From the IMG/VR virus record IMGVR_UViG_2579778650_000023: a DNA stretch of 51,722 bases; one strand, written 5' to 3'. This document shows positions 1-28,122 of this stretch, piece after piece. The notes under the pieces were generated by a model. That model did no database searches. It was not told the origin of the DNA and was given only the letters and a program-made list of their open reading frames with translations. This DNA is from a virus. Taxonomy: Duplodnaviria; Heunggongvirae; Uroviricota; Caudoviricetes. Every line of letters starts with the position of its first letter. The stretch's first letter is position 1. A program made the position numbers and the translations under genes.

Positions 1-306
1 CAGAACGGTTCAGATAACCTGATACTTATAAATCGTAAAAAAAACCTTTTTTATCAGAAGATAAGAGATAGAGAATGATTGAACTGTTAAGAATTTAGTT
101 AAAATATAAACTATCAAAGTGCATAATTTTACTTTTTTGGTGACCCAGCTCGGACCTTTGATTCAATCTGGCATAGATATTGGGAAGAGATGAAAAAACC
201 GGAAATCTCAAAAAGTGCGAGGAACTAAACCAAGTGTGCTTACAGTACAAAGACAACTATGATAACCTTTGCTAAGTCAGGTTTTACACTATGGAACAGT
301 TAATAT

Positions 307-1128
307 ATGAGTGCTATAGAAAACCAAGAAACAGTTATACAAGCAGTTAATAGTTTACATCCAACAACGTTGTTTCACTTTACTAAAAATGAAGAGGCAT
401 TCTATAGCATTTTAACAGAACTTTATTTTAAACCTTTCCTTGCCCGTGAACGCATAGTCGGAGTAAAAGGAAGAAGAAATTTCGCAGTACCAATGGTTTC
501 ATTCTGTGACATCAAGCTGTCTCAGATTAAAGATCATAGTGAAAAATATGGTGAATTTGGATTTGGGTTAACAAAAGAATGGGCTGAGAAAAATGATCTC
601 CATCCTGTTCTATACATGAATCAAGGCAGTGAATTATTTTCAAAGTATAATAAAAGAATTAGAAAACTAAAGGATGCGTTAATTCCTCTATGGTCGAAAA
701 GGCATATCCCTGATAATAAAGAGCGTAAGTATTTTGAAAGCCTTAAAGAAGAGTACGCTGACCTTTATAATTTATTACGTTATATGAAAAATTATAAAGG
801 AAAATTAGAAAGGACGAACGAAAAACCCATTGAGAATTATATCTACGCTGACGAAAAAGAATGGAGATATGTACCGCATCCATTTGTTGGCGATTTATGG
901 CCTAGCCTAAATTTAGAGCGAGTGGTGGAACCTAACCAGAAGGCCGTCTTAAGTAAAAAGTTCTCTGAATTTGGTATTAGTTTTTCTTTCGATGACATTA
1001 AATATATACTTGTTCCTGATGATAGCCACATTTCCAAATTGATAACTTGCCTTATGAGTATAAGAAATTATGATCCTTATATAATAAGTAAAGTTTTAAC
1101 GATGGATAAGGTAAAACAAGATTTTTAA
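307..1128 (+). CDS. Hypothetical protein, possible Abi-family (AbiGi-like) abortive-infection/defence protein
   Basis: 273-aa ORF, visibly AT-rich and Lys-rich; N-terminal motif TLFHFTK...FYSIL...FKPF resembles Abi-type proteins as I recall them (unverified); convergent with the giant STAND gene. Confidence 0.5.
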   Translation: MSAIENQETVIQAVNSLHPTTLFHFTKNEEAFYSILTELYFKPFLARERIVGVKGRRNFAVPMVSFCDIKLSQIKDHSEKYGEFGFGLTKEWAEKNDLHPVLYMNQGSELFSKYNKRIRKLKDALIPLWSKRHIPDNKERKYFESLKEEYADLYNLLRYMKNYKGKLERTNEKPIENYIYADEKEWRYVPHPFVGDLWPSLNLERVVEPNQKAVLSKKFSEFGISFSFDDIKYILVPDDSHISKLITCLMSIRNYDPYIISKVLTMDKVKQDF

Positions 1129-1603
1129 CACTTCTACATAGAAATTTCATTAATAAACAAGAAATTAGCTTTCTTGAGGACAACTTTACCTAAAGCTGAA
1201 AAGTGCCAATTAGCAAACTTTCATCCCATAAGCTATGATATAGCACTCACTTTATTGATAAATACCGAGGTATTCATGAAAGGTCAGGTCGATATCGAAC
1301 TCCAAAGATTGATACGGGCGCGGTATAACACCGCGGTAGAAAATTGGAGTGAATGGAAATGGTTAGAAATCGGGCATGGCGTCGTCATCATATATCTCGG
1401 TTAAAATCTAAGAGAAAAACATATCGAATTGTGTTGGCTAAAACTGAAAAAGTTGTAGGGAAAATTTACTGCCCCCCTTGTGCTTGTTCTTGTTATTTTT
1501 GTGGTAATCAAAGAATTCATCACGGAGTGAACATTCAAGAGCAACGAGCTTTGCTGCGTTTTACTGATTGACTTATAAAATATTAATCTTTTCGATAATA
1601 AAA

Positions 1604-1622
1604 GGCTCCAATCCTTGGAGCC
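1604..1622 (-). terminator. Rho-independent terminator downstream of the 1587-aa gene
   Basis: Perfect inverted repeat GGCTCCAA-tcc-TTGGAGCC; on the minus strand the hairpin is followed by TTTTATTATCG; lies between convergent genes. Confidence 0.6.
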
Positions 1623-1665
1623 TAAATTGGAAAAACTCTCATTAAAACTATTATTTTCAACTACA

Positions 1666-4600
1666 TCACAGAATATTTTCCCGTGACATATAACCAACAA
1701 CCGATCCTTTCTCTACCAAAAAATCTAATATTACTAAGACCTCTTCTTTCAACTGTTTGGTTCGTCTAATTCTCTCACGCTCAGTGTTGATATACCGCCT
1801 AACCAAACATTCCAAATAATAAACAGTATCATTTTCCAATTTATTTTCCCATAACTTTTTATTAACCGACAATATTCCTGAAAGCCAGGTTATACCTTGA
1901 TTAAGATAGCAACTGGCAATGTTATTCAATGATTTGGCAAGAGAATATACAGTTGAAGGGCAATGACCCATAGTCCTAGATACATCGCAAAAGAATTGAC
2001 TATTGTTATCTTTAAATGTGTGCCAACCATTTGAATTTTCTTTCCATGGAGATTCAGCAAAAAGGTAACTTTTTATAATTTTATCTACATACCAATACCT
2101 ATCTCCATCCTTGCACAAAGTAACCACTTTATCAAAAAACAAATCCCAAACCTTCCAAAATTTGGTGTAAGTATTTAATCTATCTTCGACGAGAATAAAT
2201 TTTTTAAATAACTCTGAAATAGGCTCTGAACCGTTGAAACCTTCAAGAAAAGGTTTTATATAATCAGGAATATCGCTCACGGGCGCATGAAGCGTAAAGT
2301 AGGCAAATCTTTCCAAGAAAGACTGCCGAAGAGCGTAATCAACTCTATCTTCTCGAACACTTGACAATAGGCTTGTAGAAAATCTTTTAACAATTAAGGA
2401 AACCAATTGCTTATGTTCAATATTGACAGTATCAACTGGAATTAATTGGAAAGCCGTGTTCAAAATATGCAGATCAACTTTATCGATACCTCCCAAATCA
2501 TCTATAGATATTTTATTATCGATGACATTTGATATGCAATGCTTATAGTTATTTAAAAACACCTTATTAATATTTATTTTTTTAATGTCATAGTCTGCTT
2601 GACGATAACTTTCATGAATGATTTTTCTTGAAAGGATTACATATTTTGGCTTTAAAATCAAAAAACCAAACAATAGAGACTGCATATCATCAAAATAGTA
2701 TAGCCATAATTTATGAATCACCATACTAGGAAATACTGAGTAGCGCCCACTTGCCATTCCAATAGAGTGGTCATTAAACAGTGTCAAAAGTAATATTGTT
2801 TTTATAGTCTCCCTTTCGACTGGATAATTATGATAAATCACAGGTAAGGCTGAAATTGCCGAGGTTGTTCCATCTAGCACCTGATAATTATAGCCTTCCT
2901 TCAACGGAAGTTTAGAATACGCTAGAACAATATCTTTACAGTATTCTCTCTCTTCATTATTCAGCTGATTAAAATTCTCTAATAGTAATATAGAACAAAC
3001 GTCTGCTGGTATATTACTGTTTAATAGTCGGAAATCTTCATCCTCCTCCTCATTAAGCTTGTTTATTATTTCTTTGGTCTCTTGTATCGCAATTTGCGGA
3101 TTGTCCTCATACATTCCATAATTCTTATAACGTTCATCCTTTTCTCTTTTATAGCTTGCCCATAGCTTCAGCGTCATATACTTCATATGCTCGGAATTTT
3201 TCTTTATTGCTTCCTCACTATATTGCTTTAGTTTTGGGTCAATCTCAGGATTGAATGATATCTCAATCCCTTCATCTTTCTCCTTAGTAGTTATATTCAT
3301 CTTTCGCCGATCCATTCTTGCCAAGCAGAGCCTCCACGTCTTATCGGCTTCAGTTTCTTGAGCTTCATCTGGAAGCTGATTATAGTATTTGTCGAAAATA
3401 TCCCATAGCACTTGTTGCCTTTCTATGGCATCTTTCTCCGTTACATTTTCACTTCTGAAAATTTGATAATGCAAGGCAAGATTTTCAAGATGAGTATTTC
3501 TATGCACATCATCGCAAGCTTTAATTCTATCTTCTTCGTGCAAAGAGTTTCTGTAATCTGCACCGCCAAAGCCATCCCTGAGGGAGATTAATGAACTTTT
3601 ATGTGTTCTGTCTAGAACCATTCGATTCATATCAAAATGGAAGAAATCCTTTGTTTGGAATAGTACTTTAGCTACATTGAATGTCTTCTCAGGGAATGCA
3701 AGTACAATACTAGTAACTACTGCGGAGATAGAAGCTGACTTGGTATTTCTCAACAAAAAGAGAAGCCAACTTTCCAACACTTTCGAGTCTGCATTTTTAA
3801 AATTCTCAAGAAAAATTTTTTCCAATGCCATATGAATTGATGAAAGTAAGTAGGTAGAGACCTGTGTTCCTCGATATGAGCACCACAGACGATTGCATAT
3901 ATATTGCTTTATAAACTTTCCTTCTTCAATAAAGACATCGACTTCTTCAATTTCGTTTTTAGCAAAGCGGGAGTGGGCAAAACATATCGTTGTCTTGTTC
4001 GTAAAATCAAGAATAAAGTCTATTGTTTTTTTGAACTGTGATTGTAGTAACCAATATATAGGAGTCTGATATGGACTTTCTGGATAATAGTCATGATGAG
4101 ACCTAAATAGACCGAACTCATCTTCAATATCCATATGGTGATAACGTTCGCCTTTTTCTTTAAGTGGCCGATACCAGAACAGATCTGCCAATTGTAGAAC
4201 ATATTCCGGGAGAGATACCCAAACCGGATGTGAATCTAAGTCAGTAAGGATTAAGGTCATAAGATCGAAATATGGGGTACCGTGCTCGTTCCACTTATTT
4301 TTTAGAATCTTAACTAAAATCTCTTCCATTTCAGGTTTAATCATGGCCGCCCCATGAAGAATCGTATGCAGAATATTTTTCTCATTATCCCTTCCGGATA
4401 AATAGACATCCTCATCTATAGTCCATTGATAATATTTTAGGGCTATCAAACTAGATAATCGAGTCGTTTCACCCACTTTGTTTCTTTGATTCCACTCTTG
4501 AATCACTGGAAGTATAAAATTAATATTTCTGAACCCAATTTCATCTAAATTTTCATGGATAAATTGGATCACACTCTGCCAACCAGTTCCCTTAGGCTTA

Positions 4601-6429
4601 GTAAGAACATATTTAATGGAAAGTAGATCTGAATTACTTACACCTAACTGTTTAAGCAGATCGTAATCAACGTCCTTGCAAGCAAGCCTCAATAAGAAAG
4701 TAAGTCTTTTTAAAAGATTCTGGTCACTACTAAGTAAATATCGTTTAAAGTAATTAAAAAATATGCCTGAATTGTCGGAAAGAAGGACAGCTACCCATAA
4801 CTCGTCTTTCCAAAATTTTGATATTCCTTCTCCACAGACTATTTCTGCGATAAAAGGCTTTATGGACTGGTCATCTAAAAGTAATCGTTCAGATATCCAA
4901 TTCCGAAAACTACGGCGAACAGGAAGTGATTCTCCTATCTTTTCGAAGAACTCGTTATTGTTCGCTTTACGGATATAATCGACGGAAATTTTCTTTTCTA
5001 ATGCCCATTCCTCATATATATCATGTGTAATGAAGTAACCAGCAGCTTCATAGCCGACAATTCCGTCTTTAACTAACGCATCTAAAATTCCAGTATCACA
5101 TGTCGGAGAGACAAAAAATTGGCCCTCACTAGCCCGCTGAAAAGCAGTCGCTAAGAAACACTGCTCCCGAGAAGGTTTATTTTTGACGACAATCTTATTC
5201 CAGAGCTTTTCTTTGAAGCTCGCATAATCGATGCTTTCACCGGTATAGAACCTCAGATATTCACTTAGATAAAATGGATTTTTGATTAGTTCTAATAATC
5301 GAACATCTTGAGGAAGGCTAAATCCATTATTATCAGATAACTCTATTAGCTCGTCGCGTTCAAGGTTCTTTATTACTAAGTTTCCAGGAGTTATCTTATA
5401 AATATCTATGAAAGCATAGTTCAGATCTGCCAAGTAGTTGTTACGGGTTGTGAAAATAACCTGCCATTTATCCTTTATTAAAACAGTCAGGAATTCTTTA
5501 AAAGGAACGATATTGGTCAATTCTAAAAGCTTTTCAGCAGAATCTACGACTATGACTTTACGTAATTCGTCTTGATGAGCATTAGAGAAATCGGCTAAGC
5601 CATGCGCACCGAATAGCTCATTAATGCTGTCTTTTTTAAACTCACTAGCCTTAAAGACATAGAAAGGAGTGCATTGTTTTTCAGCTTCATAAATTTTTTT
5701 GATAACTGCTGTTTTTCCAACCCCACCTTCTCCGCTGACGATGACAATTTTTTTCTGAACTAGATTCTCATGTAGAAGTTCAATGCAATGTCGTCTGTCA
5801 ATTTCAATACTTCTGTCTTTGAACTCTATATTGGTTTGAATTTCATATAAAACATTTTCTGTGTGCTTGCGCTTTTCTTCTAATAAATCAAAGATGCTTT
5901 CATTAAGGGAGAAGAAATGTTTTGCAATCTTTTCATTCTCAACTATTACAAACGGTGATTCAAAAAAACTAGCAACTCTCCATACTATTTCGATACCCGA
6001 CTCATATGCTTTCTGATCAACTTCAATTTTTATTTTGGGATCGTTACTATTTCCGACAGTTTCAAAATAATTATCAGCGTTCTTATCGTCTTCAGGCTCA
6101 TGAGACTTTCTCCCCTGCCCCCACTCTTGATTAGTATAGAAAATGATTTTACTTAATCCTGGATAAGCCTTTTTGCTTTTCCCAATCATTTCTATAAGAT
6201 CAGCTTTGTTATCCGACAATTTTGTGTCATAGAATTTAGATTGCCAACCGATAAGTTCATTATCTTTGGTTATTGGATTAGTTTCGATACCAGATTGATT
6301 CTTATATCTAAATATACCTGCGGGTATTTTGAATTCTTGACAGAACAATAAGTAGCAAAACCACTCAAAATTATCTTGAGGATTCTCATTAAATTTAGCT
6401 TTAAAGTTATCCCAGTTTGGTTTGACCAT
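1666..6429 (-). CDS. Large STAND-type P-loop NTPase (1587 aa): N-terminal domain of about 215 aa, NTPase core, about 1200-aa C-terminal region; Avs/AVAST-like antiviral candidate
   Basis: Walker A GEGGVGKT, Walker B-like VIVVDSAEK, STAND-like sensor motif VIFTTRNN; very long C-terminal region with no recognisable catalytic motif; AT-rich; AGGGG Shine-Dalgarno about 9 nt upstream of the ATG at 6429. Confidence 0.75.
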   Translation of the reverse strand: MVKPNWDNFKAKFNENPQDNFEWFCYLLFCQEFKIPAGIFRYKNQSGIETNPITKDNELIGWQSKFYDTKLSDNKADLIEMIGKSKKAYPGLSKIIFYTNQEWGQGRKSHEPEDDKNADNYFETVGNSNDPKIKIEVDQKAYESGIEIVWRVASFFESPFVIVENEKIAKHFFSLNESIFDLLEEKRKHTENVLYEIQTNIEFKDRSIEIDRRHCIELLHENLVQKKIVIVSGEGGVGKTAVIKKIYEAEKQCTPFYVFKASEFKKDSINELFGAHGLADFSNAHQDELRKVIVVDSAEKLLELTNIVPFKEFLTVLIKDKWQVIFTTRNNYLADLNYAFIDIYKITPGNLVIKNLERDELIELSDNNGFSLPQDVRLLELIKNPFYLSEYLRFYTGESIDYASFKEKLWNKIVVKNKPSREQCFLATAFQRASEGQFFVSPTCDTGILDALVKDGIVGYEAAGYFITHDIYEEWALEKKISVDYIRKANNNEFFEKIGESLPVRRSFRNWISERLLLDDQSIKPFIAEIVCGEGISKFWKDELWVAVLLSDNSGIFFNYFKRYLLSSDQNLLKRLTFLLRLACKDVDYDLLKQLGVSNSDLLSIKYVLTKPKGTGWQSVIQFIHENLDEIGFRNINFILPVIQEWNQRNKVGETTRLSSLIALKYYQWTIDEDVYLSGRDNEKNILHTILHGAAMIKPEMEEILVKILKNKWNEHGTPYFDLMTLILTDLDSHPVWVSLPEYVLQLADLFWYRPLKEKGERYHHMDIEDEFGLFRSHHDYYPESPYQTPIYWLLQSQFKKTIDFILDFTNKTTICFAHSRFAKNEIEEVDVFIEEGKFIKQYICNRLWCSYRGTQVSTYLLSSIHMALEKIFLENFKNADSKVLESWLLFLLRNTKSASISAVVTSIVLAFPEKTFNVAKVLFQTKDFFHFDMNRMVLDRTHKSSLISLRDGFGGADYRNSLHEEDRIKACDDVHRNTHLENLALHYQIFRSENVTEKDAIERQQVLWDIFDKYYNQLPDEAQETEADKTWRLCLARMDRRKMNITTKEKDEGIEISFNPEIDPKLKQYSEEAIKKNSEHMKYMTLKLWASYKREKDERYKNYGMYEDNPQIAIQETKEIINKLNEEEDEDFRLLNSNIPADVCSILLLENFNQLNNEEREYCKDIVLAYSKLPLKEGYNYQVLDGTTSAISALPVIYHNYPVERETIKTILLLTLFNDHSIGMASGRYSVFPSMVIHKLWLYYFDDMQSLLFGFLILKPKYVILSRKIIHESYRQADYDIKKININKVFLNNYKHCISNVIDNKISIDDLGGIDKVDLHILNTAFQLIPVDTVNIEHKQLVSLIVKRFSTSLLSSVREDRVDYALRQSFLERFAYFTLHAPVSDIPDYIKPFLEGFNGSEPISELFKKFILVEDRLNTYTKFWKVWDLFFDKVVTLCKDGDRYWYVDKIIKSYLFAESPWKENSNGWHTFKDNNSQFFCDVSRTMGHCPSTVYSLAKSLNNIASCYLNQGITWLSGILSVNKKLWENKLENDTVYYLECLVRRYINTERERIRRTKQLKEEVLVILDFLVEKGSVVGYMSRENIL

Positions 6430-6503
6430 TTAATTATTCCCCTATTTTTTGTAAATAACTGCCCCTACACAGAGAAATGCACCCTCGATATCGTACTCAG
6501 CAA

Positions 6504-6929
6504 CTATCTTCTTTCTCCATCAGAGCGCTCACGGTCAATCTTTGTCAGCTGCGCATTGAGTTGATGTCCTGTCATTCCATGTTTGTATGCATTGTATTGC
6601 CAGATCACAAACTGTTGTTTGTACCTCCGGTTCTCTTCCTTAAGCTCTTCGATTTCGCTTTCAAGATTCACAATCCTAGCGGCTGCAATGTTCAAACTAG
6701 CTGGACGCGGATTTTTGGGGCCACGGCCTTTAAGCGCCTCTTTCTTTGTTTGATAGGCAGTCACTATTGCCCCATGTGCATTAAGGGACTGTCTTGACGG
6801 CAACTTTCCAACCAATGGTTCTGCCGCCTCACAAATTACTGACCAGGACAGTTTTGGTTCCTGCCATCCTCGAATTAGATTCACGATGGCGTTAATGTCT
6901 CTATTGTCCAGATGCTTAGCCAAGGCCAC
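6504..6929 (-). CDS. Small protein (141 aa), fourth gene of the recombinase operon; coiled-coil-like C-terminus (ESEIEELKEENRRYKQ)
   Basis: ORF start overlaps the stop of the upstream recombinase gene (translational coupling); function unknown. Confidence 0.5.
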   Translation of the reverse strand: MALAKHLDNRDINAIVNLIRGWQEPKLSWSVICEAAEPLVGKLPSRQSLNAHGAIVTAYQTKKEALKGRGPKNPRPASLNIAAARIVNLESEIEELKEENRRYKQQFVIWQYNAYKHGMTGHQLNAQLTKIDRERSDGERR

Positions 6930-8949
6930 CTCCTAACAAAGTTGTCAAATCATCTAACATCACAGCTTCTTCACTTTCTTTGCCTTTTTGCTTGATGGCC
7001 GCAATAGACGTCTTTGCGACAACACGGCGAAGCTGGCTGAAATCATTGCCCCGGAGCTTAATCTGGGCACCATTTTCAATGTCTGGATTCTCTAAAATAG
7101 CGACTAACTCACGAAGCCGGGTGACAGTTTTCTTGTGGTATTGATACCAGCGATCAGCCCCCATCTCGCCGCGTTCTACCGCTGCATCAGCAATACAAAA
7201 CATTCGTTCCGACTTCACCAAACGTTTCTTAATTCGATCCAATATTTCTGTATCCTCGCCTTTGATACAAACCTGCTCAGTACAATTGACGCAATCTCGG
7301 AACTTCTCGCAAGGGCCCATGGTGTAATCATGCACGCAGTAGCCATACTCCGTCACATGGACTGCGGCATGATCTAACGTATTGAACTCTTGAATAGTCA
7401 CAGGAAGGTGCTTAGCCACATCTCCAGCAGGCCCAAATAGACCTTTTGAGGGATCGAGGCGTTCAGACATGCCAACCAACTCATATTCAGTCATGTGGTT
7501 GTAAGCTCGATTCTGTTTCATATCTGCCCGACCAGACCACTTGGCAATTTCCAAGTTTGAGAGCCCACCACGCTGAGCTATGGTGTTAAGTAGGTGCCGA
7601 GCTTGGTGCGAGGTTAATTTAACCCGTTCACCGTTTTCAGCATGGTAATTATAGCGATCAAAGATACTGGCATGTTTTCCATTCAAAGTCTCCCGAGGCG
7701 TCAGATCATTATTAAAGAAGTTATTGGTTGGTTTATACAATTCAATCGGTATACATCGGCGATTCCCGTGGAACTGATTTACATTAAGTGCAAACAAAGC
7801 ATTGCTGTACTTAATTCCCTTGTCTTTATCAAACCACGGAAAACCATCAGGCAATCGCGCCATAGCATGGCGCCACAGGCTTTTTAGTGTGTGCGAACCA
7901 TCTTCTTGAGCTAACCCTCGATTAAAGAGAGAAGAACGACATTGTTTTTTGGATTTACAAGCAAGACCGAGAGCCATACAAGACTGTTCCATTGTCAACG
8001 GCTCATCATCAGCGACATCAGGACAGTTAGCATGGCGGTAAAATTTATCCGGGTGTATCTCAATCCACTTGGCCAGCTGTCGAGCATTCTCAGATAACAT
8101 TTTGGTTCTAGCGATAGCTGTTTTAGCAACGCCAACCATTACAGTGGGTATCCATTTAATGCCCCCTTCATAGCCTTTACCTGCAAAGAAACGCCAACCA
8201 TAGCGTTCTATATCTTCGCTATCGGTTTCAAACACCTCACAATCTGCAGGAAGTGCTAACACTTCAGAAATGCGCGAAGGAGCAGACATCAGCATAGCAA
8301 ACACCGATGTTGTAAATATGTCTCTTTCATCCATTGGATCGTTTGCAAAAATTTCCGCAAGCGCGTTGAGGGCAATATCACTCGGTAGTTTCTTTTCCCT
8401 ATTTTTTTTAGCCTCTCTGCCTGTTTTGTTTTTGTCCTCTGCACGCCTAATGGGATTAACCCAATTTTGCACAGCACTTGATACAAGTCGATTTTCAACG
8501 ACAAACTTAGCCAGCCGCTCAATCTCTCGGCCACAATGATATGCAGCACCATCAGAGTAGTGCTGCCTTGCCAATTCAGATGCTTCATCCAGTACTGAAA
8601 TCGACAGACCATCAATATTTGCATTTCCATTTACTTGAATTAAAGCCGCCTCAATCGCACGGAGGGCCTTACTTTCATTCTTTGTCCCTGTGGGATGATG
8701 TCCCTGCTGGTAACGAAAATAGGCTTTGGCGAAATCAATGAACGCAGGGTCTTGTACCTCTCCCTGCATAGGTGTTCGCGTAATAATGCCTAGCTTGGCA
8801 AACACTGTTATGTTTGGCCAAACAGGAGCTTCCCAATTCAGATCGGAACCGAATACAATCAATTGTACTCGGCACTTGGATATGAATACTCCAAGGTTTT
8901 GTGCTGCTGTCAGCGTAGCCTTTGGTTTAAACTGGAAAATCTCAGCCAT
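6916..8949 (-). CDS. Tyrosine recombinase-family protein (third of trio, about 677 aa)
   Basis: C-terminal HQARHLL ... NRAYNHMTEYEL motifs resemble the H-x-x-R and catalytic Tyr of integrase-family proteins; start chosen at ATG 8949 with GGGAG Shine-Dalgarno, overlapping the stop of the upstream gene (alternative start 8994). Confidence 0.6.
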   Translation of the reverse strand: MAEIFQFKPKATLTAAQNLGVFISKCRVQLIVFGSDLNWEAPVWPNITVFAKLGIITRTPMQGEVQDPAFIDFAKAYFRYQQGHHPTGTKNESKALRAIEAALIQVNGNANIDGLSISVLDEASELARQHYSDGAAYHCGREIERLAKFVVENRLVSSAVQNWVNPIRRAEDKNKTGREAKKNREKKLPSDIALNALAEIFANDPMDERDIFTTSVFAMLMSAPSRISEVLALPADCEVFETDSEDIERYGWRFFAGKGYEGGIKWIPTVMVGVAKTAIARTKMLSENARQLAKWIEIHPDKFYRHANCPDVADDEPLTMEQSCMALGLACKSKKQCRSSLFNRGLAQEDGSHTLKSLWRHAMARLPDGFPWFDKDKGIKYSNALFALNVNQFHGNRRCIPIELYKPTNNFFNNDLTPRETLNGKHASIFDRYNYHAENGERVKLTSHQARHLLNTIAQRGGLSNLEIAKWSGRADMKQNRAYNHMTEYELVGMSERLDPSKGLFGPAGDVAKHLPVTIQEFNTLDHAAVHVTEYGYCVHDYTMGPCEKFRDCVNCTEQVCIKGEDTEILDRIKKRLVKSERMFCIADAAVERGEMGADRWYQYHKKTVTRLRELVAILENPDIENGAQIKLRGNDFSQLRRVVAKTSIAAIKQKGKESEEAVMLDDLTTLLGGGLG

Positions 8950-10504
8950 TGGCGATTGCTCCCTGTGGACTAAGCTCTTCACGACGTTTTGCACAACGCA
9001 TGATCACATCTGCCACCGCGATAATGCTGCGATCAAGTATGGCAGCAATCTGGATATCGCCGGTTATCTCTTTCACCCGTTCACGCTCGTTGAGCAGCCC
9101 CTGATAGACATCCTCATGGGGGCCATCCAGCCAAGGCTGGAAATGCATGCAGGTGTAGCAAGGAATAGGAACATTGGCACCACAAAAACCATGCTCCCCA
9201 CAAGTACCTACACCATGGCCTATCTCGGTCCTAATGCGACTGGCAGGGTCGTTACCTCGATGCGCGCCCCTCTCTGAATCGACAAGTACCCCGACAAAGG
9301 CCTGGGCGTATGGTGCTAGTTGGAAGCCAACCGCCTCATCAAGCTTTTTCACATGTTCGGGAATGTTCTTGATGTAAACGCCGGCGTTTTGGGTATCCGT
9401 ATGGTCAAGTAGTTCCGCAATCACCAATTCGCCAAATCCTTCCTTGGCAGCTCGTGTGCCCGTGGTATAGCGAAAACGACGAGCATTGATATGTAATAGC
9501 TCACCAGTACGTTCTGACCGGATATCAGATTTTTCTATGATGTACTGGAGTGTGTTGGTTATCTTTGCTGCGGGAATGTGGAGTTTGTCGGTAGCAAACA
9601 GTTGGCGGAATTCATAAGGAGACTGGACGGTAGCTAACACATCAAGATCTGGAAACAGAGGGATTTGCTGTCGGTCATCTTCCTGCAATTCAAACCCCAG
9701 ACGATTCTCAACCATTGCAATTGCATTCTTTGCCTGAGTGTTCAGAATTACCCATAGTTCTGGTGATATCGCAAAGAGCTTGAAGTTTATTCGAAAAGAA
9801 CTGCTGCGCTGCTTGGCTCGCGGCACATTCAAAACATAGAATGGCTCTCCCTTTCCATTTTTACCGCAAAGCACATCGACTGCATGAAGCAGCGAGATCT
9901 GGATGGGTCGTCGTCCTGTATGACTGATGCTAAGTGCCAAAGCCAACTCCGCTATGGTAATTAAGCTCTTTTCATAAGCCCGAACAGCCCCCTCGTTAAA
10001 CGCTGTCAGCTCATTATCCGTCAGAGGCCCTTCTTGAGGATCCTGACGCTTAACCGCATCTCCCTTACGATTACCCTTCAGCCTCCAGCCATCCAACAAA
10101 CTGATCACATCTTTGCTGATACCGGGATAACCAAGCTGGTGCCAAGTTCGAAGAAAGCCACGTATAGTTGCCAGATACCATTCCGTCGCAGGCAATAGTC
10201 TCGCCCGATAATTAATCAATACCGTATCAGTAATTTCTCTCGCATGAGTCTCTCGCAGCATGTGCTGAAACCGCATAATAATGTTCAGAGTATGAGGAGC
10301 AGATTGAGTAGAAGCATAAAATGCTAGCGTGCGTAGGCAGCCATTGAGCCCCTCACCTGACAAGTAATGGTGAATATCTACAAGAGTGGCGTGGGTATTT
10401 TTATCCAATATCCACGATGTATCATATAAGTGAAAGAAGTAGCCATTAGCCCTAGCACAGATTCGCTCGGACACTAATGCCGGTAGGAACTTACTCGTCA
10501 TCAT
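8942..10504 (-). CDS. Tyrosine recombinase-family protein (second of trio, 520 aa)
   Basis: Integrase-like motifs (HTGRRP..., RFRYTTGTRAAK, ...GVYIK); start overlaps the stop of the first recombinase gene. Confidence 0.6.
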   Translation of the reverse strand: MMTSKFLPALVSERICARANGYFFHLYDTSWILDKNTHATLVDIHHYLSGEGLNGCLRTLAFYASTQSAPHTLNIIMRFQHMLRETHAREITDTVLINYRARLLPATEWYLATIRGFLRTWHQLGYPGISKDVISLLDGWRLKGNRKGDAVKRQDPQEGPLTDNELTAFNEGAVRAYEKSLITIAELALALSISHTGRRPIQISLLHAVDVLCGKNGKGEPFYVLNVPRAKQRSSSFRINFKLFAISPELWVILNTQAKNAIAMVENRLGFELQEDDRQQIPLFPDLDVLATVQSPYEFRQLFATDKLHIPAAKITNTLQYIIEKSDIRSERTGELLHINARRFRYTTGTRAAKEGFGELVIAELLDHTDTQNAGVYIKNIPEHVKKLDEAVGFQLAPYAQAFVGVLVDSERGAHRGNDPASRIRTEIGHGVGTCGEHGFCGANVPIPCYTCMHFQPWLDGPHEDVYQGLLNERERVKEITGDIQIAAILDRSIIAVADVIMRCAKRREELSPQGAIANG

Positions 10505-11753
10505 TCTTCATGTCCTTTGGCAAGCGAGTGCCATTACCTTCCTGCAATGCCAAAGCGGCCTCAAACCCTTTTTGCTGAATGAAACGCTTGTTGTAAGTCG
10601 CTGCAGTTCCCGAACCATCTCTCCAACCCATTAAGTAAGAACGGAGCTGCTCTTGGCGTTCCTCGCTGACTTGCTCATTCATGGCATCCATTCTTTCTGA
10701 AAACTTTCGATTCCATGTATGGCGGAACGAATGCCCTGTCGCTGCATACAATTGTGGTGATACAGCCCTGACCACGGAAAAGATTTTATGATATCCCCCT
10801 TTAGAGATAGGGTTTCCAACTGTTGGCCCTAGCTTATAAGTGACAAAGAGGTAGTCATTTTTCTTTGCATTTCGGACTTTCCGGCGATCTTGGATGATAT
10901 AACTATGTAGTTCTTGAACTAGGGATTCAGCCAATGGCAAGAGCCGGTCTCTCGTTTTAGCATGGGGCTGATTGGTTCTAGAATCAGCTAGCTCATCTGC
11001 TCGCCTAAATATACGGATCCTGTTAGTACTAAAATCAATATCTTGTATTCTGATGTTTAACAATTCCCCACCTCGAATACCAAGATAAAACAGAAGTAAG
11101 ATCATCAGCCGATTGCGACGCTGAACATCTATTGAGAAAGGATTTAAATCTGATCCCGGCTTGATAACTTCAAATAGCGTATCCAATTGCACATCATTCA
11201 ATGACCTGTCTTGCCATTCACTGTTTCTGCGCTTTTTCGACGGTCGACGTATCTTTATGTGCTGCAACATTTCATTGATCTGTTCGACAACGCCCGGTTC
11301 TGCCGTCTTTAAAATATGCATTGCATACCAACCTAAATATTTGGCATATGTTGTCAGCCGGGAATGCAATGTTCCGTTATCAACAGTATCGCTACTCGCA
11401 TCTTCCAACCAAGGTGTAGAAGAAGCAACTAACAGCTTCTTTCCCTGCTTGCGCTGAGCAAAATCCCGCAGATCGTCCAGTTCGTAAGGTTTGAAGAAAT
11501 TTTTGGTCAAAAATCGCTGTTCTAGGTCAATGCCACGATTATCTAAGAAGCGTAGCAGCACAACAAGGTTGCTAGCTGCTGCTAGCATAGTTGAAAAAGC
11601 ATCCCCTCTGTTGCGGATTTGGGTTGTTAAAAAAAGAGTCGGGTAATACACGGGAAGGCAAGAAGAACGATCCACCACCATGCAGTATCGCTCGCCACTG
11701 TCCATGACAAATGTTGTAACCTTGTAGTTATCCTTCATGTGCCCATACCCCAT
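10491..11753 (-). CDS. Tyrosine recombinase/integrase (first of trio, about 415-420 aa)
   Basis: LGIRGGELLNIRIQDID (box I Arg) and GHSFRHTW (H-x-x-R) motifs, C-terminal Tyr region; true start may be the internal Met at 11738. Confidence 0.7.
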   Translation of the reverse strand: MGYGHMKDNYKVTTFVMDSGERYCMVVDRSSCLPVYYPTLFLTTQIRNRGDAFSTMLAAASNLVVLLRFLDNRGIDLEQRFLTKNFFKPYELDDLRDFAQRKQGKKLLVASSTPWLEDASSDTVDNGTLHSRLTTYAKYLGWYAMHILKTAEPGVVEQINEMLQHIKIRRPSKKRRNSEWQDRSLNDVQLDTLFEVIKPGSDLNPFSIDVQRRNRLMILLLFYLGIRGGELLNIRIQDIDFSTNRIRIFRRADELADSRTNQPHAKTRDRLLPLAESLVQELHSYIIQDRRKVRNAKKNDYLFVTYKLGPTVGNPISKGGYHKIFSVVRAVSPQLYAATGHSFRHTWNRKFSERMDAMNEQVSEERQEQLRSYLMGWRDGSGTAATYNKRFIQQKGFEAALALQEGNGTRLPKDMKNDDE

Positions 11754-11828
11754 ACACTTTACATAATTGCAAGGTACACAGTATGTTAGGAAGATATCAA
11801 TTACGATTTGACACTTTTGAGACGCGGC

Positions 11829-11857
11829 AAATAAAAAGCCCCTGTATTAACAGGGGC
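11829..11857 (-). terminator. ssb rho-independent terminator
   Basis: Hairpin GCCCCTG-ttaata-CAGGGGC followed by TTTTTATTT on the minus strand, immediately downstream of ssb. Confidence 0.75.
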
Positions 11858-11896
11858 CTGATAGATAATTAATTACATAAACGTCTTAGGTAAATC

Positions 11897-12686: not shown

Positions 12687-15509
12687 ATGGATAAGATCGA
12701 AGTTCGGGGCGCCCGCACCCATAATCTCAAAAACATCAACCTCGTTATCCCCCGCGACAAGCTCATTGTCGTGACCGGGCTTTCGGGTTCTGGCAAATCC
12801 TCGCTCGCTTTCGACACCTTATATGCCGAAGGGCAGCGCCGTTACGTTGAATCCCTTTCCGCCTACGCGCGGCAGTTTCTGTCACTGATGGAAAAGCCGG
12901 ACGTCGATCATATTGAGGGGCTTTCTCCTGCCATCTCAATTGAGCAGAAATCGACGTCTCATAACCCGCGTTCTACGGTGGGGACAATCACCGAAATCCA
13001 CGACTATTTGCGTTTGTTGTTCGCCCGCGTCGGCGAACCGCGCTGTCCGGACCACGACGTCCCGCTGGCGGCGCAAACCGTCAGCCAGATGGTGGATAAC
13101 GTGCTGTCGCAGCCGGAAGGCAAGCGTCTGATGCTACTCGCGCCAATCATTAAAGAGCGCAAAGGCGAACACACCAAAACGCTGGAGAACCTGGCAAGCC
13201 AGGGTTACATCCGTGCTCGTATTGATGGCGAAGTCTGCGATCTTTCCGATCCGCCGAAACTGGAACTGCAAAAGAAACACACTATTGAAGTGGTGGTTGA
13301 TCGCTTCAAGGTGCGTGACGATCTTACCCAACGTCTTGCGGAGTCGTTTGAAACCGCGCTGGAGCTTTCCGGTGGTACAGCGGTAGTGGCGGATATGGAC
13401 GACCCGAAAGCGGAAGAGCTGCTGTTCTCCGCCAACTTCGCCTGCCCAATTTGCGGCTACAGTATGCGTGAACTGGAGCCGCGACTGTTTTCGTTTAACA
13501 ACCCGGCAGGTGCCTGCCCAACCTGTGACGGCCTTGGCGTACAGCAATATTTCGATCCTGACCGCGTGATCCAAAACCCCGAGCTGTCACTGGCTGGCGG
13601 TGCGATCCGTGGCTGGGATCGCCGCAACTTCTATTACTTCCAGATGCTGAAATCGCTGGCAGATCACTATAAGTTCGACGTCGAAGCGCCGTGGGGCAGC
13701 CTGAGCGCGAACGTGCATAAAGTGGTGTTGTACGGTTCTGGCAAAGAAAACATTGAATTCAAATACATGAACGATCGTGGCGATACCTCCATCCGTCGTC
13801 ATCCGTTCGAAGGCGTGCTGCACAATATGGAGCGCCGTTATAAAGAGACAGAATCCAGTGCGGTACGTGAAGAATTAGCCAAGTTTATCAGCAATCGCCC
13901 ATGCGCCAGCTGCGAAGGGACGCGTCTGCGTCGGGAAGCGCGCCACGTTTATGTCGAGAATACGCCGCTGCCTGCTATCTCCGACATGAGCATCGGTCAT
14001 GCGATGGAATTCTTCAACAATCTCAAACTAGCTGGTCAGCGGGCGAAGATTGCAGAAAAAATCCTTAAAGAGATCGGCGATCGTCTGAAATTCCTCGTTA
14101 ACGTCGGCCTGAATTACCTGACACTTTCCCGCTCGGCAGAAACACTTTCCGGCGGTGAAGCCCAGCGTATCCGTCTGGCGAGCCAGATTGGTGCGGGCCT
14201 GGTTGGCGTTATGTATGTACTGGACGAGCCGTCTATCGGCCTGCACCAGCGCGATAACGAGCGCCTGTTGGGTACGCTTATCCATCTGCGCGATCTCGGT
14301 AATACCGTGATTGTGGTGGAGCATGACGAAGACGCAATTCGCGCCGCTGACCATGTGATCGATATCGGTCCTGGTGCGGGTGTTCACGGCGGTGAAGTGG
14401 TCGCGGAAGGTCCACTGGAAGCGATTATGGCGGTGCCGGAGTCGTTAACCGGACAGTACATGAGCGGTAAACGCAAGATTGAAGTGCCGAAGAAACGCGT
14501 TCCGGCAAATCCGGAAAAAGTGCTGAAGCTGACAGGCGCACGCGGCAACAACCTGAAGGACGTGACGCTCACGCTGCCAGTCGGTCTGTTTACCTGCATC
14601 ACAGGGGTTTCAGGTTCCGGTAAATCGACGCTGATTAACGACACACTGTTCCCGATTGCCCAACGCCAGTTGAATGGTGCGACCATCGCCGAACCGGCAC
14701 CGTATCGCGATATTCAGGGGCTGGAGCATTTCGATAAAGTGATCGATATCGACCAAAGCCCAATTGGTCGTACTCCACGTTCTAACCCGGCGACCTATAC
14801 CGGCGTGTTTACGCCTGTGCGCGAACTGTTTGCGGGCGTACCGGAATCCCGTGCGCGTGGTTATACGCCAGGACGTTTCAGCTTTAACGTCCGTGGCGGG
14901 CGCTGCGAAGCCTGTCAGGGCGACGGTGTGATCAAAGTAGAGATGCACTTCCTGCCGGATATCTACGTGCCGTGCGATCAGTGTAAAGGTAAACGCTATA
15001 ACCGTGAAACGCTGGAAATTAAGTACAAAGGCAAAACCATCCACGAAGTGCTGGATATGACCATCGAAGAGGCGCGTGAGTTCTTTGATGCCGTACCTGC
15101 ACTGGCGCGTAAGCTGCAAACGTTGATGGACGTTGGCCTGACGTACATTCGCCTGGGGCAGTCCGCAACCACACTTTCTGGTGGTGAAGCCCAGCGCGTG
15201 AAGCTGGCGCGTGAGCTGTCAAAACGCGGCACCGGGCAGACGCTGTATATTCTCGACGAGCCGACCACCGGTCTGCACTTCGCCGATATTCAGCAACTGC
15301 TCGACGTACTGCATAAACTGCGCGATCAGGGCAACACCATTGTGGTGATTGAGCACAATCTCGACGTGATCAAAACCGCTGACTGGATTGTCGACCTGGG
15401 ACCAGAAGGCGGCAGTGGCGGCGGCGAAATCCTCGTCTCCGGTACGCCAGAAACCGTCGCGGAGTGCGAAGCATCACACACGGCACGCTTCCTCAAGCCG
15501 ATGCTGTAA
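12687..15509 (+). CDS. uvrA: Excinuclease ABC subunit A (940 aa)
   Basis: [19 protein letters not shown]..., two ABC ATPase modules ([18 protein letters not shown]; LSGGEAQR signatures), zinc-finger Cys clusters. Confidence 0.97.
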
Positions 15510-23870: not shown

Positions 23871-24863
23871 TTAACGCTTATCCGCCACCAGTTTGAGCGC
23901 GTGTTCCAGCACATTAATGTCTGCACCCGCTTTATGGGCATTTTCACTTAAATAACGCCGCCACTGCCGCGCGCCAGGAATACCCTGGAACAAGCCCAAC
24001 ATATGCCGGGTAATATGGCCGAGATACGTCCCCTGGCTGAGTTCACGCTCAATGTACGGATACATGGCGCGCACTACCGCCACCGGATCGGCATCGGTAT
24101 CCGAGGAACCAAAGATCTCCCGGTCTACTGCCGCCAGAATACCCGGATTCTGATACGCCTCGCGCCCGACCATCACGCCATCCATATGTTGCAGGTGTGC
24201 TTTGGCCTCTTCCAGCGACTTGATACCACCGTTAATCGACATTGTCAGATGCGGAAAGTCACGCTTCAGTTGATACACACGCGGATAATCGAGCGGCGGG
24301 ATTTCACGGTTTTCTTTCGGGCTTAACCCCGAAAGCCAGGCTTTACGTGCGTGGATGATAAACATCTCACACTCGCCTTTGCCGGAAACAGTGTTGATGA
24401 AATCGCAGAGAAATTCATAGCTGTCCTGGTCATCGATGCCAATACGCGTTTTCACCGTCACTGGAATCGACACCACATCGCGCATCGCTTTCACACAGTC
24501 GGCAACCAGCTGCGCATTACCCATCAGACACGCACCAAACATGCCGTTCTGCACCCGGTCAGACGGGCAGCCGACATTCAGGTTGATCTCATCATATCCG
24601 CGCGCTTCTGCCAGCTTTGCACACTGCGCCAGCGCCGCCGGATCGCTACCGCCCAGTTGCAACGCTACCGGATGTTCTTCTTCACTGTACGCCAGATAAT
24701 CACCTTTACCGTGAATAATCGCCCCTGTGGTCACCATTTCGGTATACAGCAACGTATTGCGGGAAAGCAGACGCAAGAAATAGCGGCAATGTCTGTCCGT
24801 CCAGTCGAGCATAGGAGCAATGCTAAACCGAGAATTCCAGTAAACACCAGTTTTTTCAGGCAT
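23871..24863 (-). CDS. dusA: tRNA-dihydrouridine synthase A (about 330 aa; the six-frame ORF allows a start at 24908)
   Basis: [29 protein letters not shown]..., TIM-barrel Dus motifs (NLNVGCPS); the 5' end lies at the prophage junction. Confidence 0.93.
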
Positions 24864-24941
24864 CACGCTGGTTTGATTAATTTTTTGTGTTTCATGATTA
24901 TCGTGCATTTTTGAACATTTCAGGCTATTTTTCTCGCGTTA

Positions 24942-24976
24942 GGTTCCCGCACAGGTTCCCACGTTTTATGGGAACC
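24942..24976. promoter_or_regulatory. GGTTCCC direct/inverted repeats in the dusA-int intergenic region (candidate attL-associated recombinase-binding or operator sites)
   Basis: GGTTCCC at 24942-24948 and 24954-24960, inverted copy GGGAACC at 24970-24976. Confidence 0.4.
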
Positions 24977-24996
24977 CGAAATAACGAGGTCGTGTA

Positions 24997-26094
24997 ATGG
25001 CGTACTATAACATAGAGAAACGACTAAAATCCGATGGCACACCACGCTATCGCTGTAATGTGATTATCAAAGAAAAAGGTGTTATCACTTACAGGGAAAG
25101 CAAAACATTCCCTAAACATGCTCATGCCAAAACATGGGGCACACAGAAAGTGATGGAATTAGATCTATATGGCATTCCATCATCAAATGCAGTTGACGGA
25201 CTTACAGTCCGTGACTTACTACACAAATATTTAAATGACCCAAATGCCGGAGGTAAAGCAGGCCGTACTAAAAGATATGTGCTGGAACTGCTTATGGATA
25301 GTGACATCTCCGCGATCAAACTATCTGAACTGACAGAAAATGACGTAATTGAACATTGCAGGCTAAGAAACAACGCTGGTGCAGGTCCAGCTACAGTTAG
25401 CCACGATGTTAGTTATCTTGGCAGTGTTCTGGATGCTGCCAAACCTGTATATGGAATTAATTACACATCAAACCCAGCAAAAGCCGCTCGTCCATATCTA
25501 CTTAAACTTGGGTTAATTGGTAAATCAAATCGTCGTAATCGTAGACCGGCATCTGATGAACTGGACATGCTCATTGAAGGTCTTCAACAACGATCTACAC
25601 ATAAATGCTCAAAAATTCCGTTCGTTGATATCCTCAAATTTTCTGTGTGGTCATGTATGCGAATCGGTGAAGTATGCCGATTACGATGGGAGGATCTCGA
25701 TCAGGAACAAAAATCCATACTCGTAAGAGACAGGAAAGATCCACGTAAAAAGGAAGGCAACCATATGAAAGTAGCCTTGCTTGGGGAAGCCTGGGATATC
25801 GTCCAACGACAACCCAAAAAATCAGAATTCATTTTTCCATATAACAGCACTTCTGTTACTGCGGGATTCCAGAGGGTAAGAAGCAAATTAGGTATTAAAG
25901 ATCTGCGATACCATGATTTGCGTAGAGAAGGGGCAAGTCGCTTATTTGAGGCTGGTTTTAGTATTGAGGAAGTCGCCCAGGTTACAGGGCATCGTTCATT
26001 AAACGTGCTATGGCAGGTATATACCGAACTGTATCCGAAATCTTTACATAATCGTTTTGAAGAGCTCCAAAGGAGCAGAAATAAGACCTCTTGA
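24997..26094 (+). CDS. int: Phage tyrosine integrase (dusA-associated integrase type, 365 aa)
   Basis: Integrase-family C-terminal motifs (MRIGEVCRLRWEDLD; HDLRREGASRLFEAG; QVTGHRSLNVLWQVYTE with catalytic Tyr); positioned at the dusA 5' end. Confidence 0.9.
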   Translation: MAYYNIEKRLKSDGTPRYRCNVIIKEKGVITYRESKTFPKHAHAKTWGTQKVMELDLYGIPSSNAVDGLTVRDLLHKYLNDPNAGGKAGRTKRYVLELLMDSDISAIKLSELTENDVIEHCRLRNNAGAGPATVSHDVSYLGSVLDAAKPVYGINYTSNPAKAARPYLLKLGLIGKSNRRNRRPASDELDMLIEGLQQRSTHKCSKIPFVDILKFSVWSCMRIGEVCRLRWEDLDQEQKSILVRDRKDPRKKEGNHMKVALLGEAWDIVQRQPKKSEFIFPYNSTSVTAGFQRVRSKLGIKDLRYHDLRREGASRLFEAGFSIEEVAQVTGHRSLNVLWQVYTELYPKSLHNRFEELQRSRNKTS

Positions 26095-26155: not shown

Positions 26156-26404
26156 ATGCGTATTGAAATCTGCATAGCCAAAGAAAAAATGACTAAAATG
26201 CCAACCGGTGCTGTGGATGCGTTAAAGGAAGAATTAACCCGACGCATCAGTAAACGTTATGACGATGTAGAGGTGATCGTAAAAGCCACCAGCAACGATG
26301 GCCTTTCTGTTACACGCACCGCAGATAAGGATTCTGCAAAAACTTTTGTTCAGGAGACTCTGAAAGATACCTGGGAATCTGCTGACGAGTGGTTTGTTCA
26401 CTAA
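26156..26404 (+). CDS. DinI-like DNA-damage-inducible protein (82 aa)
   Basis: [11 protein letters not shown]...[18 protein letters not shown] closely resembles DinI (MRIEV...ILQETWESADDWFV); GAGGG Shine-Dalgarno. Confidence 0.85.
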
Positions 26405-26815: not shown

Positions 26816-27022
26816 TTAACTGACTAACTCATCTTGAGGAGTAACTACATCTGGTTTTAAGGAAGGCTTGATGAATTTTTTACCGTCATATGACCAGCCA
26901 ATACCAACATCTCCAACACATTTAACTATATCCGCTTTTTCTGACTTAAACTCTGACTTACCATCCCATACAACAAGATTTGTAACGACACCATTTTGTA
27001 CGACTGCATAAATATCGCTCAT
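26816..27022 (-). CDS. Small tail-fibre-associated protein (68 aa), function unknown
   Basis: ATG overlaps the tail fibre stop (TAATG), suggesting translational coupling. Confidence 0.45.
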   Translation of the reverse strand: MSDIYAVVQNGVVTNLVVWDGKSEFKSEKADIVKCVGDVGIGWSYDGKKFIKPSLKPDVVTPQDELVS

Positions 27023-28122
27023 TACTGATACTCCCACACAAGAATATATCCCTGATTTCCATTATTTCCTGTCGCTGGACCTGATGACGCCTTATTGTAT
27101 TTACCTGTCCCGCCAATACCGTATATCCCAAGCATAGTAGTGGTTATACTTTCAACGCCAATCGCCTGATCATCACCAAGTCCAAGTGCCCCACATAAAT
27201 TTGATCGTGAAACTGAATGGAACAGAATCCCTTGCCCTGTAGGAATTGGTGCTTCTGTTGCACTTCCCCCTGAAAATGGAGGTACCTGCTGAACTTGAGT
27301 TGATCCCCTTCCTCCCGGACATACAAGCAAATCACCAAAGCTTGTATTCCCGCCGTCACCTCCAGAGCCTCCTGGTCCTGTTCCTGCTACACCACCGCTT
27401 CCAATAGTTACTTGCACGGATTCAGGTATAGACTGATAAAAAAATGCTTTAGCATATGCCCCGTTGGAACCGGCAGCACTTACACCACAGTTACCAGATG
27501 CAGTTGCCGACAAATTACCACTGGCACCACCTCCGCCAACGGCTTCCACTATAATTTTCGTTACACCAGGTGATTTGATATAAGTCCCAGATGATCCAAA
27601 TGCCTGAACCCCCAAAAGCCTTCCTGTTCCATCCCCAAGTGTTAAATATTTTAGAGTTTCCGATACGTTTTTTTTACTTAAAATTTCCCTGCCATTTTGA
27701 GTCAGCGCTGTCATATCCATTGTTCCGGCACCTGTAAAAAATGCCAGCCCATCCGGTATTCCTGTTAAGCTCGACAATGATGTCAGATTATCATTTTTAT
27801 CCTGTTTATCATTCAGAATGTCTGTCATTCCCAGGTTTTCGAGAGCCGTTTGCACAGTGCCATCCGATTTGATATCGCCAAACGGATTCTTGCGGCTTAA
27901 CAGCAGCGCACGAAGCGCGGTAAGAAGCTGATCGTGCCGCCCCTTCTCCAGGCTGGCACCGGATGCCTCCACCACGCTGCAGAGTTCTTCCTGCAACATG
28001 TCAAAGTAGTCATCATCCAGAACGGTGGCAGGCGTGCCGGTCTGGGGGTTACCACGGGTAAAACCGTTCTTACCCGCGCCGAACTTATCCTTCTGCGCGG
28101 TTTTCGTGTCTATACGATGCAT
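27022..28122 (-). CDS. Phage tail fibre protein (366 aa)
   Basis: N-terminus [47 protein letters not shown] is typical of tail fibre N-domains; Gly-rich C-terminal repeats. Confidence 0.8.

Follow-up and report, generated by a model that had tools for sequence, protein, structure and literature searches.

The dusA-associated integrases (DAIs) were described, together with dusA-specific prophages and islands, by Farrugia et al. (2015, NAR 43:4547; PMC4482086). The integrases of mEp460, AH2, BcepMigl and H66 are named members of the family; Table S1 of that study gives E. coli 101-1, 3003, B171 and H10407 as dusA lysogens; mitomycin-induced excision has been shown for members other than the one treated here; and the closest characterised relative of the DAIs is, according to the same authors, the shufflon recombinase Rci (PMC4482086). 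In E. coli K-12, Durand, Deschenes and Burrus (2021, PLoS Genet; PMC8409611) found that the element IMEVchUSA3 gives dusA a new promoter and an N-terminus of equal length, and RdfN is an experimentally shown directionality factor of dusA integrases (PMC8409611). For Stx phages, dusA/yjbM is a recognised site. The locus described below is a textbook case of a dusA-associated integrase system, and the phenomenon as such is already known (Farrugia 2015; Durand 2021). What the locus adds is only mildly new: a conserved attP architecture with covarying repeats, and a probable fossil at the start of the K-12-type dusA.

The window, by which we mean the whole stretch of 51,722 nucleotides that was analysed, is E. 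coli chromosome: positions 22158–51722 (~29.6 kb) are 99.98% identical to E. coli O111:H2 strain 12A (NZ_CP077479.1), and positions 1–11891 are missing from that strain. The best explanation of the whole, which we hold with high confidence, is that an SfV-like prophage was integrated in dusA by a dusA-associated integrase (Int) and replaced the first 32 codons of the gene with its own copy. The features that make up the locus are the following:

23871–24908, minus strand: dusA (345 aa; Pfam Dus, E = 7.8e-105, domain over residues 30–340)
23871–24804, minus strand: the chromosomal portion of dusA, codon 36 to stop, in-register identity with the C600 empty allele up to the core
24805–51722, no strand: the left 26.9 kb of the prophage, running past the window end (on the basis of the 12A annotation and the SfV-like structural genes)
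24997–26094, plus strand: int, the dusA-associated tyrosine integrase gene (365 aa; Pfam Phage_integrase PF00589, E = 1.1e-20)
26156–26404, plus strand: a DinI-like gene, partner of int (Pfam DinI, E = 1.1e-19)

dusA and int form a divergent pair. The first-pass annotation, made from the sequence without database searches, had put the integrase start about 90–130 bp from the dusA start in divergent orientation; the measured distances from the int ATG are 88 bp to the upstream dusA ATG (24908) and 133 bp to the in-frame ATG at 24863. It had also seen a prophage behind the integrase, and phage genes do continue from dinI up to the window end: tail fibre, baseplate, tape measure, sheath/tube, HK97 capsid, portal, terminase, lysis and antiterminator/late-regulation genes, with a morphogenesis block that is 97–98% identical to that of Shigella phage SfV. 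The whole element can be read in 12A, where it is 40,562 bp long and has the displaced dusA 5′ fragment as its far end. Since the same dusA-int-dinI junction is present in 733 of 5426 complete E. coli genomes (13.5%, ~1 in 7), the adjacency of dusA and int is not a matter of chance.

The proposal that the integrase belongs to a dedicated dusA-targeting family is borne out by pairwise identity to named members: Int is 98.4% identical to the Int of mEp460, and 34–35% identical, over 93–94% of its length, to those of Burkholderia phages AH2 and BcepMigl and Pseudomonas phage H66. In it R222, H306, R309, H332 and Y342 align with the catalytic residues of XerA (the RHRH tetrad and the nucleophilic tyrosine) and are invariant in 47 homologues, with the exception of R309, which is nearly so (90% or more). 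Homologues with 47–71% identity lie divergently beside dusA in 8 of the 80 other species sampled, with Mixta, Pectobacterium, Morganella, Xenorhabdus and Grimontia among the genera, and in Salmonella and Aeromonas as well. The Int of Stx2 phage 1720a-02, a phage that carries the gene for Shiga-toxin II subunit A, is 100% identical to the one in the window, and the int-dinI pair is found in both mEp460 and 1720a-02. This Stx2 phage thus has the same integrase module, which makes dusA relevant as a place where toxin phages insert.

The crossover was located by a four-way alignment of attL (window), attR (the far junction in 12A), attB (the empty site of C600) and attP (free phage mEp460). attR is outside the window and was read in 12A, with the 99.98% identity over 22158–51722 given above, and not in the source genome. 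The alignment defines one further feature:

24805–24812, no strand: attL core TCGAGCAT; the dusA strand reads ATGCTCGA, codons M33-L34-D35 (L001 43210–43217)

This 8-bp TCGAGCAT is the sole stretch common to attL, attR, attB and attP. attL equals attB through 24812 and, from 24805 on, is identical or near-identical to attP; attR has the reverse arrangement, attP-like to the left of the core and an exact match to attB to the right of it. attP and attB are equal at 17 of 22 positions around the exact core, and the deposited genome of Stx phage 1720a-02 has its first base at TCGAGCAT. In attL of elements from nine sources GTCCAGTCGAGCAT(a/c)GG(a/g)GCAA is kept, as a semi-conserved att of ~21 bp in the MLDWTD-coding part of dusA. 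Comparison with the unoccupied C600 allele thus puts the att core at 24805–24812, and attR is found 40,562 bp away in 12A. There the far end of the prophage carries the direct repeat: the native dusA segment from ATG to core, 104 bp, matches C600 exactly, and RefSeq annotates this fragment as an incomplete tRNA-dihydrouridine synthase. Judged from the aligned sequences, the mechanism of integration is established: attP × attB recombination took place within TCGAGCAT, at dusA codons 33–35, and stranded the native promoter and first 32 codons at the far junction, where they form a dead fragment.

Beyond the window the 12A element continues for a further 13.6 kb, with a LexA-like repressor, early genes, a PrtN/RdfN-family excisionase and attR. 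The PrtN-family protein near attR (L001 41717–41989) matches PF11112 with E = 3.3e-24 and the excisionase family PHROG 1300 with E = 3e-40. Excision would be set off when the SOS response cleaves the LexA-like repressor, would need this PrtN/RdfN-family protein from the opposite prophage end, and would give back the exact native dusA allele. The infectivity of the predicted phage is unproven, since PGAP flags one tail-fibre gene as a pseudogene. In 12A this program reports a partial stfP and one further truncated gene, as would be expected if the element were a fixed defective remnant, with att sites as described but with int and rdfN no longer capable of excision and a phage that is non-viable; degraded scars without int are common in other genera, and one Salmonella-type contig has int with no phage genes behind it. 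We consider such a remnant rather unlikely. No reading frame is broken in int, the rdfN-like gene, the repressor or the complete head, tail, terminase and lysis modules; in the window the supposed stfP pseudogene is an uninterrupted ORF of 366 aa; neither att site is damaged; and the two phages whose Ints match at 100% (1720a-02) and 98.4% (mEp460) are both deposited as complete phage genomes. Excision as a circle and viability of the phage are predictions, the former with indirect evidence from mEp460, whose free-phage genome contains the junction that the excised form should have.

Elements of different genera were aligned over the interval that separates the core from the int start codon. 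The layout has a constant order: the core GTCCAGTCGAGCAT, a 32-codon mimic of the dusA start, a start box, a TATTTTT box, the repeats and int. The sequence of the mimic is free to vary, but its length is exactly 32 codons in all Enterobacterales and Aeromonas elements. In the window the parts beyond the mimic are:

24897–24912, no strand: conserved box ATTATCGTGCATTTTT with the replacement dusA start codon (conservation at the DNA level)
24926–24932, no strand: TATTTTT box, 17 nt beyond the start-codon box, its position kept across elements
24942–24976: three copies of GGTTCCC, candidate P′-arm integrase sites, direct at 24942 and 24954 (12-bp spacing) and inverted at 24970–24976
25004–25012, minus strand: TGTTATAGT, an extended −10-like motif and candidate replacement dusA promoter, overlapping int codons 3–6

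TATTnTCGTGCATTT, always 96 nt from the core, is conserved at the DNA level in elements of at least eight genera, and the 30 codons that follow it are not; it is because this DNA-level box contains the start codon that an MH-x-N N-terminus recurs. As to the repeats, 3 of the window's 8 copies of GGTTCCC fall within 35 bp. Over the whole window the motif shows no enrichment (8 copies versus 4.9 expected), so only the clustering and the covariation across elements are meaningful. Each related element has its own 7–8-mer in the same direct-direct-inverted order: CAGCACCC in Mixta, GTACACCA in Xenorhabdus, GGTACACC in Salmonella, CAGGACAC in Aeromonas and AGTACCCC in a Vibrio tectivirus-like prophage. 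Perfect 8/8 repeats at 11–12 bp spacing are present in 10 of 12 elements, which shuffled sequences rarely equal. The other arm carries a copy as well: in mEp460 and 12A it is GGTTCCCAATAGGCTCCC, 61 bp from the attR/attP core, and in the Vibrio tectivirus-like prophage it is GGTACTCC/GTACCCC, 62 bp from the core.

Lambda Int binds arm-type sites, and the element-specific 7–8-mers on both att arms are probably sites of this type. Int would then bind the GGTTCCC repeats of both arms via an extra N-terminal domain, as lambda Int does, and such binding may also autoregulate int, because the repeats have the conserved boxes on one side and the int ATG on the other. In such a place an operator would equally be expected, and the N-terminal β3-α domain of Int has a weak structural match to known arm-binding folds; both points fit a role of the repeats as operators at which a phage regulator controls transcription of int or dusA, in place of a role as Int arm sites. 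We regard an operator function as quite unlikely, however: in mEp460/12A and the Vibrio prophage the opposite arm has the element-specific motif too, separated from the core by a conserved 61–62 bp; Int is the sole protein common to all dusA elements (PMC4482086); and Int does carry the N-terminal domain, for whose residues 1–70 neither Pfam nor NCBIfam has a named family.

Next to these candidate arm sites, the first int codons follow the pattern ATGGCsTACTATArCATA, the opposite strand of which gives TGnTATAGT directed at dusA. In 42 of 80 dusA loci TGnTATAGT occurs at most 260 nt upstream of the MLDW codons (expected: 0.009 per locus), and its distance from these codons is ~100 nt in the ancestral (short) type and 185–202 nt in the element type. 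A scan of 24700–25100 for sigma-70 promoters and terminators found none, so what we say of promoters is drawn from the conserved extended −10-like motif. In our reading TGnTATAGT serves as the promoter of dusA, at native and at replaced 5′ ends alike. In the window dusA would now be transcribed from a promoter supplied by the element, probably TGTTATAGT over the first int codons.

The 5′ end of dusA itself is the last part of the attachment region:

24813–24908, minus strand: phage-supplied dusA codons 1–32, with in-frame ATGs at 24908 and 24863

Strains without the prophage have a different dusA 5′ end: upstream of the core 18 of the 96 nt differ from the native K-12-type sequence (81% identity), 9 of the 32 codons having a changed amino acid and 4 being silent. 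In the replacement the reading frame is preserved, as are the two ATGs and the RFS(I/V)AP strand; the native peptide is MHGNSEMQKINQTSAMPEKTDVHWSGRFSVAP. In mEp460 the attP copy of this dusA look-alike differs from the window at 7 of 104 nt, adjoins int and is contiguous with the phage side of attR. Codons 1–32 in the window are phage-derived, because the genome of a free phage carries the same look-alike beside int; the suggestion in the first-pass annotation that the first dusA codons may come from the phage is thereby upheld, and by this comparison all 32 are phage DNA of the mEp460 attP type. As attP has a 96-nt imitation of codons 1–32 plus upstream sequence, integration rebuilds an intact 345-codon dusA with a phage N-terminus. 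That the prophage sits in the intergenic region and left dusA itself unaltered, the odd 5′ end being due to allelic variation or homologous-recombination mosaicism, is extremely improbable: the replaced segment is indeed just 96 nt long and 81% identical to the native one, and megablast aligns empty-site alleles straight through it, to window position 24911, but the segment is present with 7 of 104 nt different beside int in the free phage mEp460, the far junction keeps an exact native copy, and attL and attR switch at one and the same 8-bp core.

Given integration within dusA, the further idea that the two possible starts of the gene reflect its remodelling holds in one sense and fails in another. 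They do not stem from the present insertion, since both in-frame ATGs are found in the K-12-type allele without a prophage (C600). Historically the idea stands: across genera, dusA 5′ ends supplied by elements are marked by the upstream ATG and the 15 codons that it adds, a hallmark which ancestral-type alleles lack.

Two classes of dusA allele exist in E. coli, and the 5426 genomes split fully between them, 4303 (79%) with the K-12-type upstream region and 1123 with the B2-type. The B2-type has a distinct 133-bp 5′ end and a 331-aa DusA, lies directly beside zur without yjbL/yjbM, and includes ST131 and ATCC 25922, both of which we take to be phylogroup B2. Divergence between the K-12-type and the B2-type sets in ~10 bp past the att core. 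The B2-type is the ancestral one, because Enterobacter, Klebsiella, Kluyvera, Phytobacter and Cedecea have a 5′ UTR/leader and start that are collinear with it. The K-12-type shows the element layout, with 32 codons, a GTGCATTT start box, a TATTTT box and the −10 motif at 188 nt (not 99), and a K-12-specific yjbL/yjbM segment of 1.7 kb and 34.8% GC adjoins dusA. Among 80 species, the 32-codon MH-type start is found at 6 of 8 loci with a neighbouring integrase and at 9 of 72 loci without one (Fisher p = 4e-4). A P′-arm profile from which all dusA coding sequence was excluded matches, with nhmmer, directly upstream of dusA in int-less loci of Yersinia, Photorhabdus, Xenorhabdus, Morganella and Moellerella (E 4e-22 to 3e-5); fossilised element 5′ ends therefore exist.

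We think it probable that the K-12-type dusA start (32 codons, upstream ATG, long leader and the 1.7-kb yjbL/yjbM segment) is likewise a fossil of an older dusA-element insertion, a reading for which the sampling covered the 5426 E. coli genomes and the 80 species, outside E. albertii, E. fergusonii and Salmonella empty sites. M16 (24863) would then be the ancestral start and M1 (24908) part of the element-type extension, the short 5′ end of B2 strains would be the ancestral one, and remodelling of the gene would have preceded the entry of the prophage seen in the window. Searches in K-12 for direct traces of such an insertion were negative. An integrase remnant upstream of dusA was sought by tblastn with no significant match (best E = 0.79); the best local DNA alignment of the upstream region with int and the P′ arm scored 27, below the shuffle maximum of 36, and matched an unrelated stretch within int, not its start; the nhmmer P′-arm profile hit the right place only at E = 4.4; and the displaced B2-type 5′ fragment is absent from K-12. 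Within 140 nt upstream of K-12 dusA a match to the int start, GGGGTACTATACCATA, was equalled by 16 of 1000 shuffles. This apparent int-start remnant was rejected, as it is the TGnTATAGT motif, which in K-12 is not an integrase relic because it is also conserved upstream of ancestral-type dusA. K-12-like scars in Kosakonia have no yjbL/yjbM homologues beside them, so there is no evidence that yjbLM and the mimic moved as a unit.

The value for annotation is modest: base-level positions are now available for the dusA start, for the far-junction pseudogene and for the borders of the prophage. Those who study site-specific recombination or the evolution of the E. coli genome may be interested in the fixed 96-nt spacing from core to start box, the covarying arm repeats, the putative dusA promoter motif under the first int codons, and the fossil 5′ ends, which probably include that of the K-12 reference allele. 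These side observations overturn nothing.

Among known systems, the SXT ICE, which uses the 5′ end of prfC, differs in integrase lineage, target gene and element type. Lambda differs as well: Int in the window is 19% identical to lambda Int, the arm-site sequences are unrelated and those described here are candidates only, and attP lies between the early operon and int, whereas in lambda it lies downstream of int. Rci belongs to the same branch of tyrosine recombinases, and mEp460 Int is annotated as INT_Rci (cd00796); unlike the integrase studied here, it inverts plasmid shufflon segments, has an extended C-terminus and does not target dusA. IMEVchUSA3 (PMC8409611) uses the same E. coli K-12 dusA site and likewise has a PrtN-like RDF across attP from int, but it is an IncC-mobilisable island under AcaCD; the element in the window is a phage with a LexA-like repressor, and its control is for that reason presumably by SOS. 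The DAI elements of Farrugia et al. (PMC4482086) are the closest of all, and nothing essential differs: int is divergent at the dusA 5′ end, that end is replaced by element DNA, an imperfect direct repeat holds the displaced native 5′ end, the catalytic set is RHRH-Y, a prtN homologue lies at the other end, and the element is a phage lysogen of ~40 kb. What varies is the cargo, here an SfV-like myovirus, while in mEp460 and 1720a-02 the same int module is carried by lambdoid phages with lambda-like tail genes.

The motif TGnTATAGT lies on the minus strand of the window at 25004-25012 and also 5' of dusA in L006-L037; of 80 species, 42 have it conserved upstream of dusA, and it is probably the dusA -10 element. 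Where a mobile element is present, the motif falls within int codons 3-6, read on the opposite strand, and therefore the Int N-terminus and the probable dusA -10 element are encoded on the same bases; the conserved Int N-terminus overlapping the motif is MAYY(S/N)IE.

The dusA 5' end exists as two alleles that split all 5426 E. coli genomes: K-12-type (4303 genomes), accompanied by yjbL/yjbM, and B2-type (1123 genomes), which lacks these genes. The regions compared were:

L002 5422-7107, K-12-type (C600/K-12)
L005 4922-5054, strain N1420

The breakpoint between the alleles coincides with the att core of the dusA integrase. The B2-type 5' end is collinear with other Enterobacteriaceae, and the K-12-type 5' end resembles a scar left behind by an ancient insertion. 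Loci without an integrase were found in five other genera:

L073 1561-1675, Yersinia dusA
L057 3827-3935, Photorhabdus dusA
L070 3847-3975, Xenorhabdus dusA
L062 3812-3922, Morganella dusA
L059 3788-3932, Moellerella dusA

All five keep an element-type dusA 5' end of 32 or 29 codons with recognisable remains of the P' arm (the att arm on the int side) immediately 5' of dusA, and are therefore fossil insertions; some of them also have a truncated int start.

Within the prophage of the window, and in its counterpart in the near-identical strain 12A, two further regions are of note:

27022-28122 of the window, minus strand, intact 366-aa ORF with a glycine-rich C-terminal domain, tail-fibre candidate
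42016-43006 of L001 (strain 12A), opposite strand, two genes flanked by attR and the rdfN-like gene, one for a YafO-family toxin, the other of 179 aa and unannotated

The C-terminus of the 366-aa ORF matches Pfam Gly_rich_2 (E=7e-7). In strain 12A the RefSeq annotation covers no more than the first ~100 codons of this ORF, as a truncated 'stfP' pseudogene; the ORF may encode a chimeric yet functional tail fibre. The toxin and 179-aa genes, just inside attR and beyond the window, are by position placed where moron cargo sits, and the same spot holds other genes in phage mEp460 and in strain TUM13754.

At the other end of the window, a low-GC island (1-11891, GC 32-46%) adjoins ssb/yjcB and is not present in strain 12A; this 12-kb block is also found in 359 E. 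coli genomes and on several plasmids. It carries an AbiGi-family gene and:

1666..6429, minus strand, Avs4 (AVAST type 4), 1587 aa
6916..8994, 8942..10504 and 10491..11753, all minus strand, three tyrosine recombinase genes in a row

Related int modules occur in other elements:

L091 2501-6086, qor-pspG-dusA-int contig, its Int sequence annotated by NCBI in Salmonella enterica
L086 (PQ189389.1) 1-180 and 14290-14374, Vibrio phage 1F53_PE004

In L091, sulfatase and HtrL-family genes come immediately after int and phage genes are absent, so that this is an element reduced to the integrase and the dusA mimic (the element-supplied first codons of dusA). Vibrio phage 1F53_PE004 is a 14-kb, tailless, PM2-like (Vinavirales) prophage with a related integrase (56% identical), the core shared by the dusA elements (as the terminal repeats TCCAATCGAGCAT) and a dusA mimic of only 19 codons, which fits the Vibrio-type N-terminus. 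Thus the int/attP module crosses virus realms and the length of the mimic follows the host clade.
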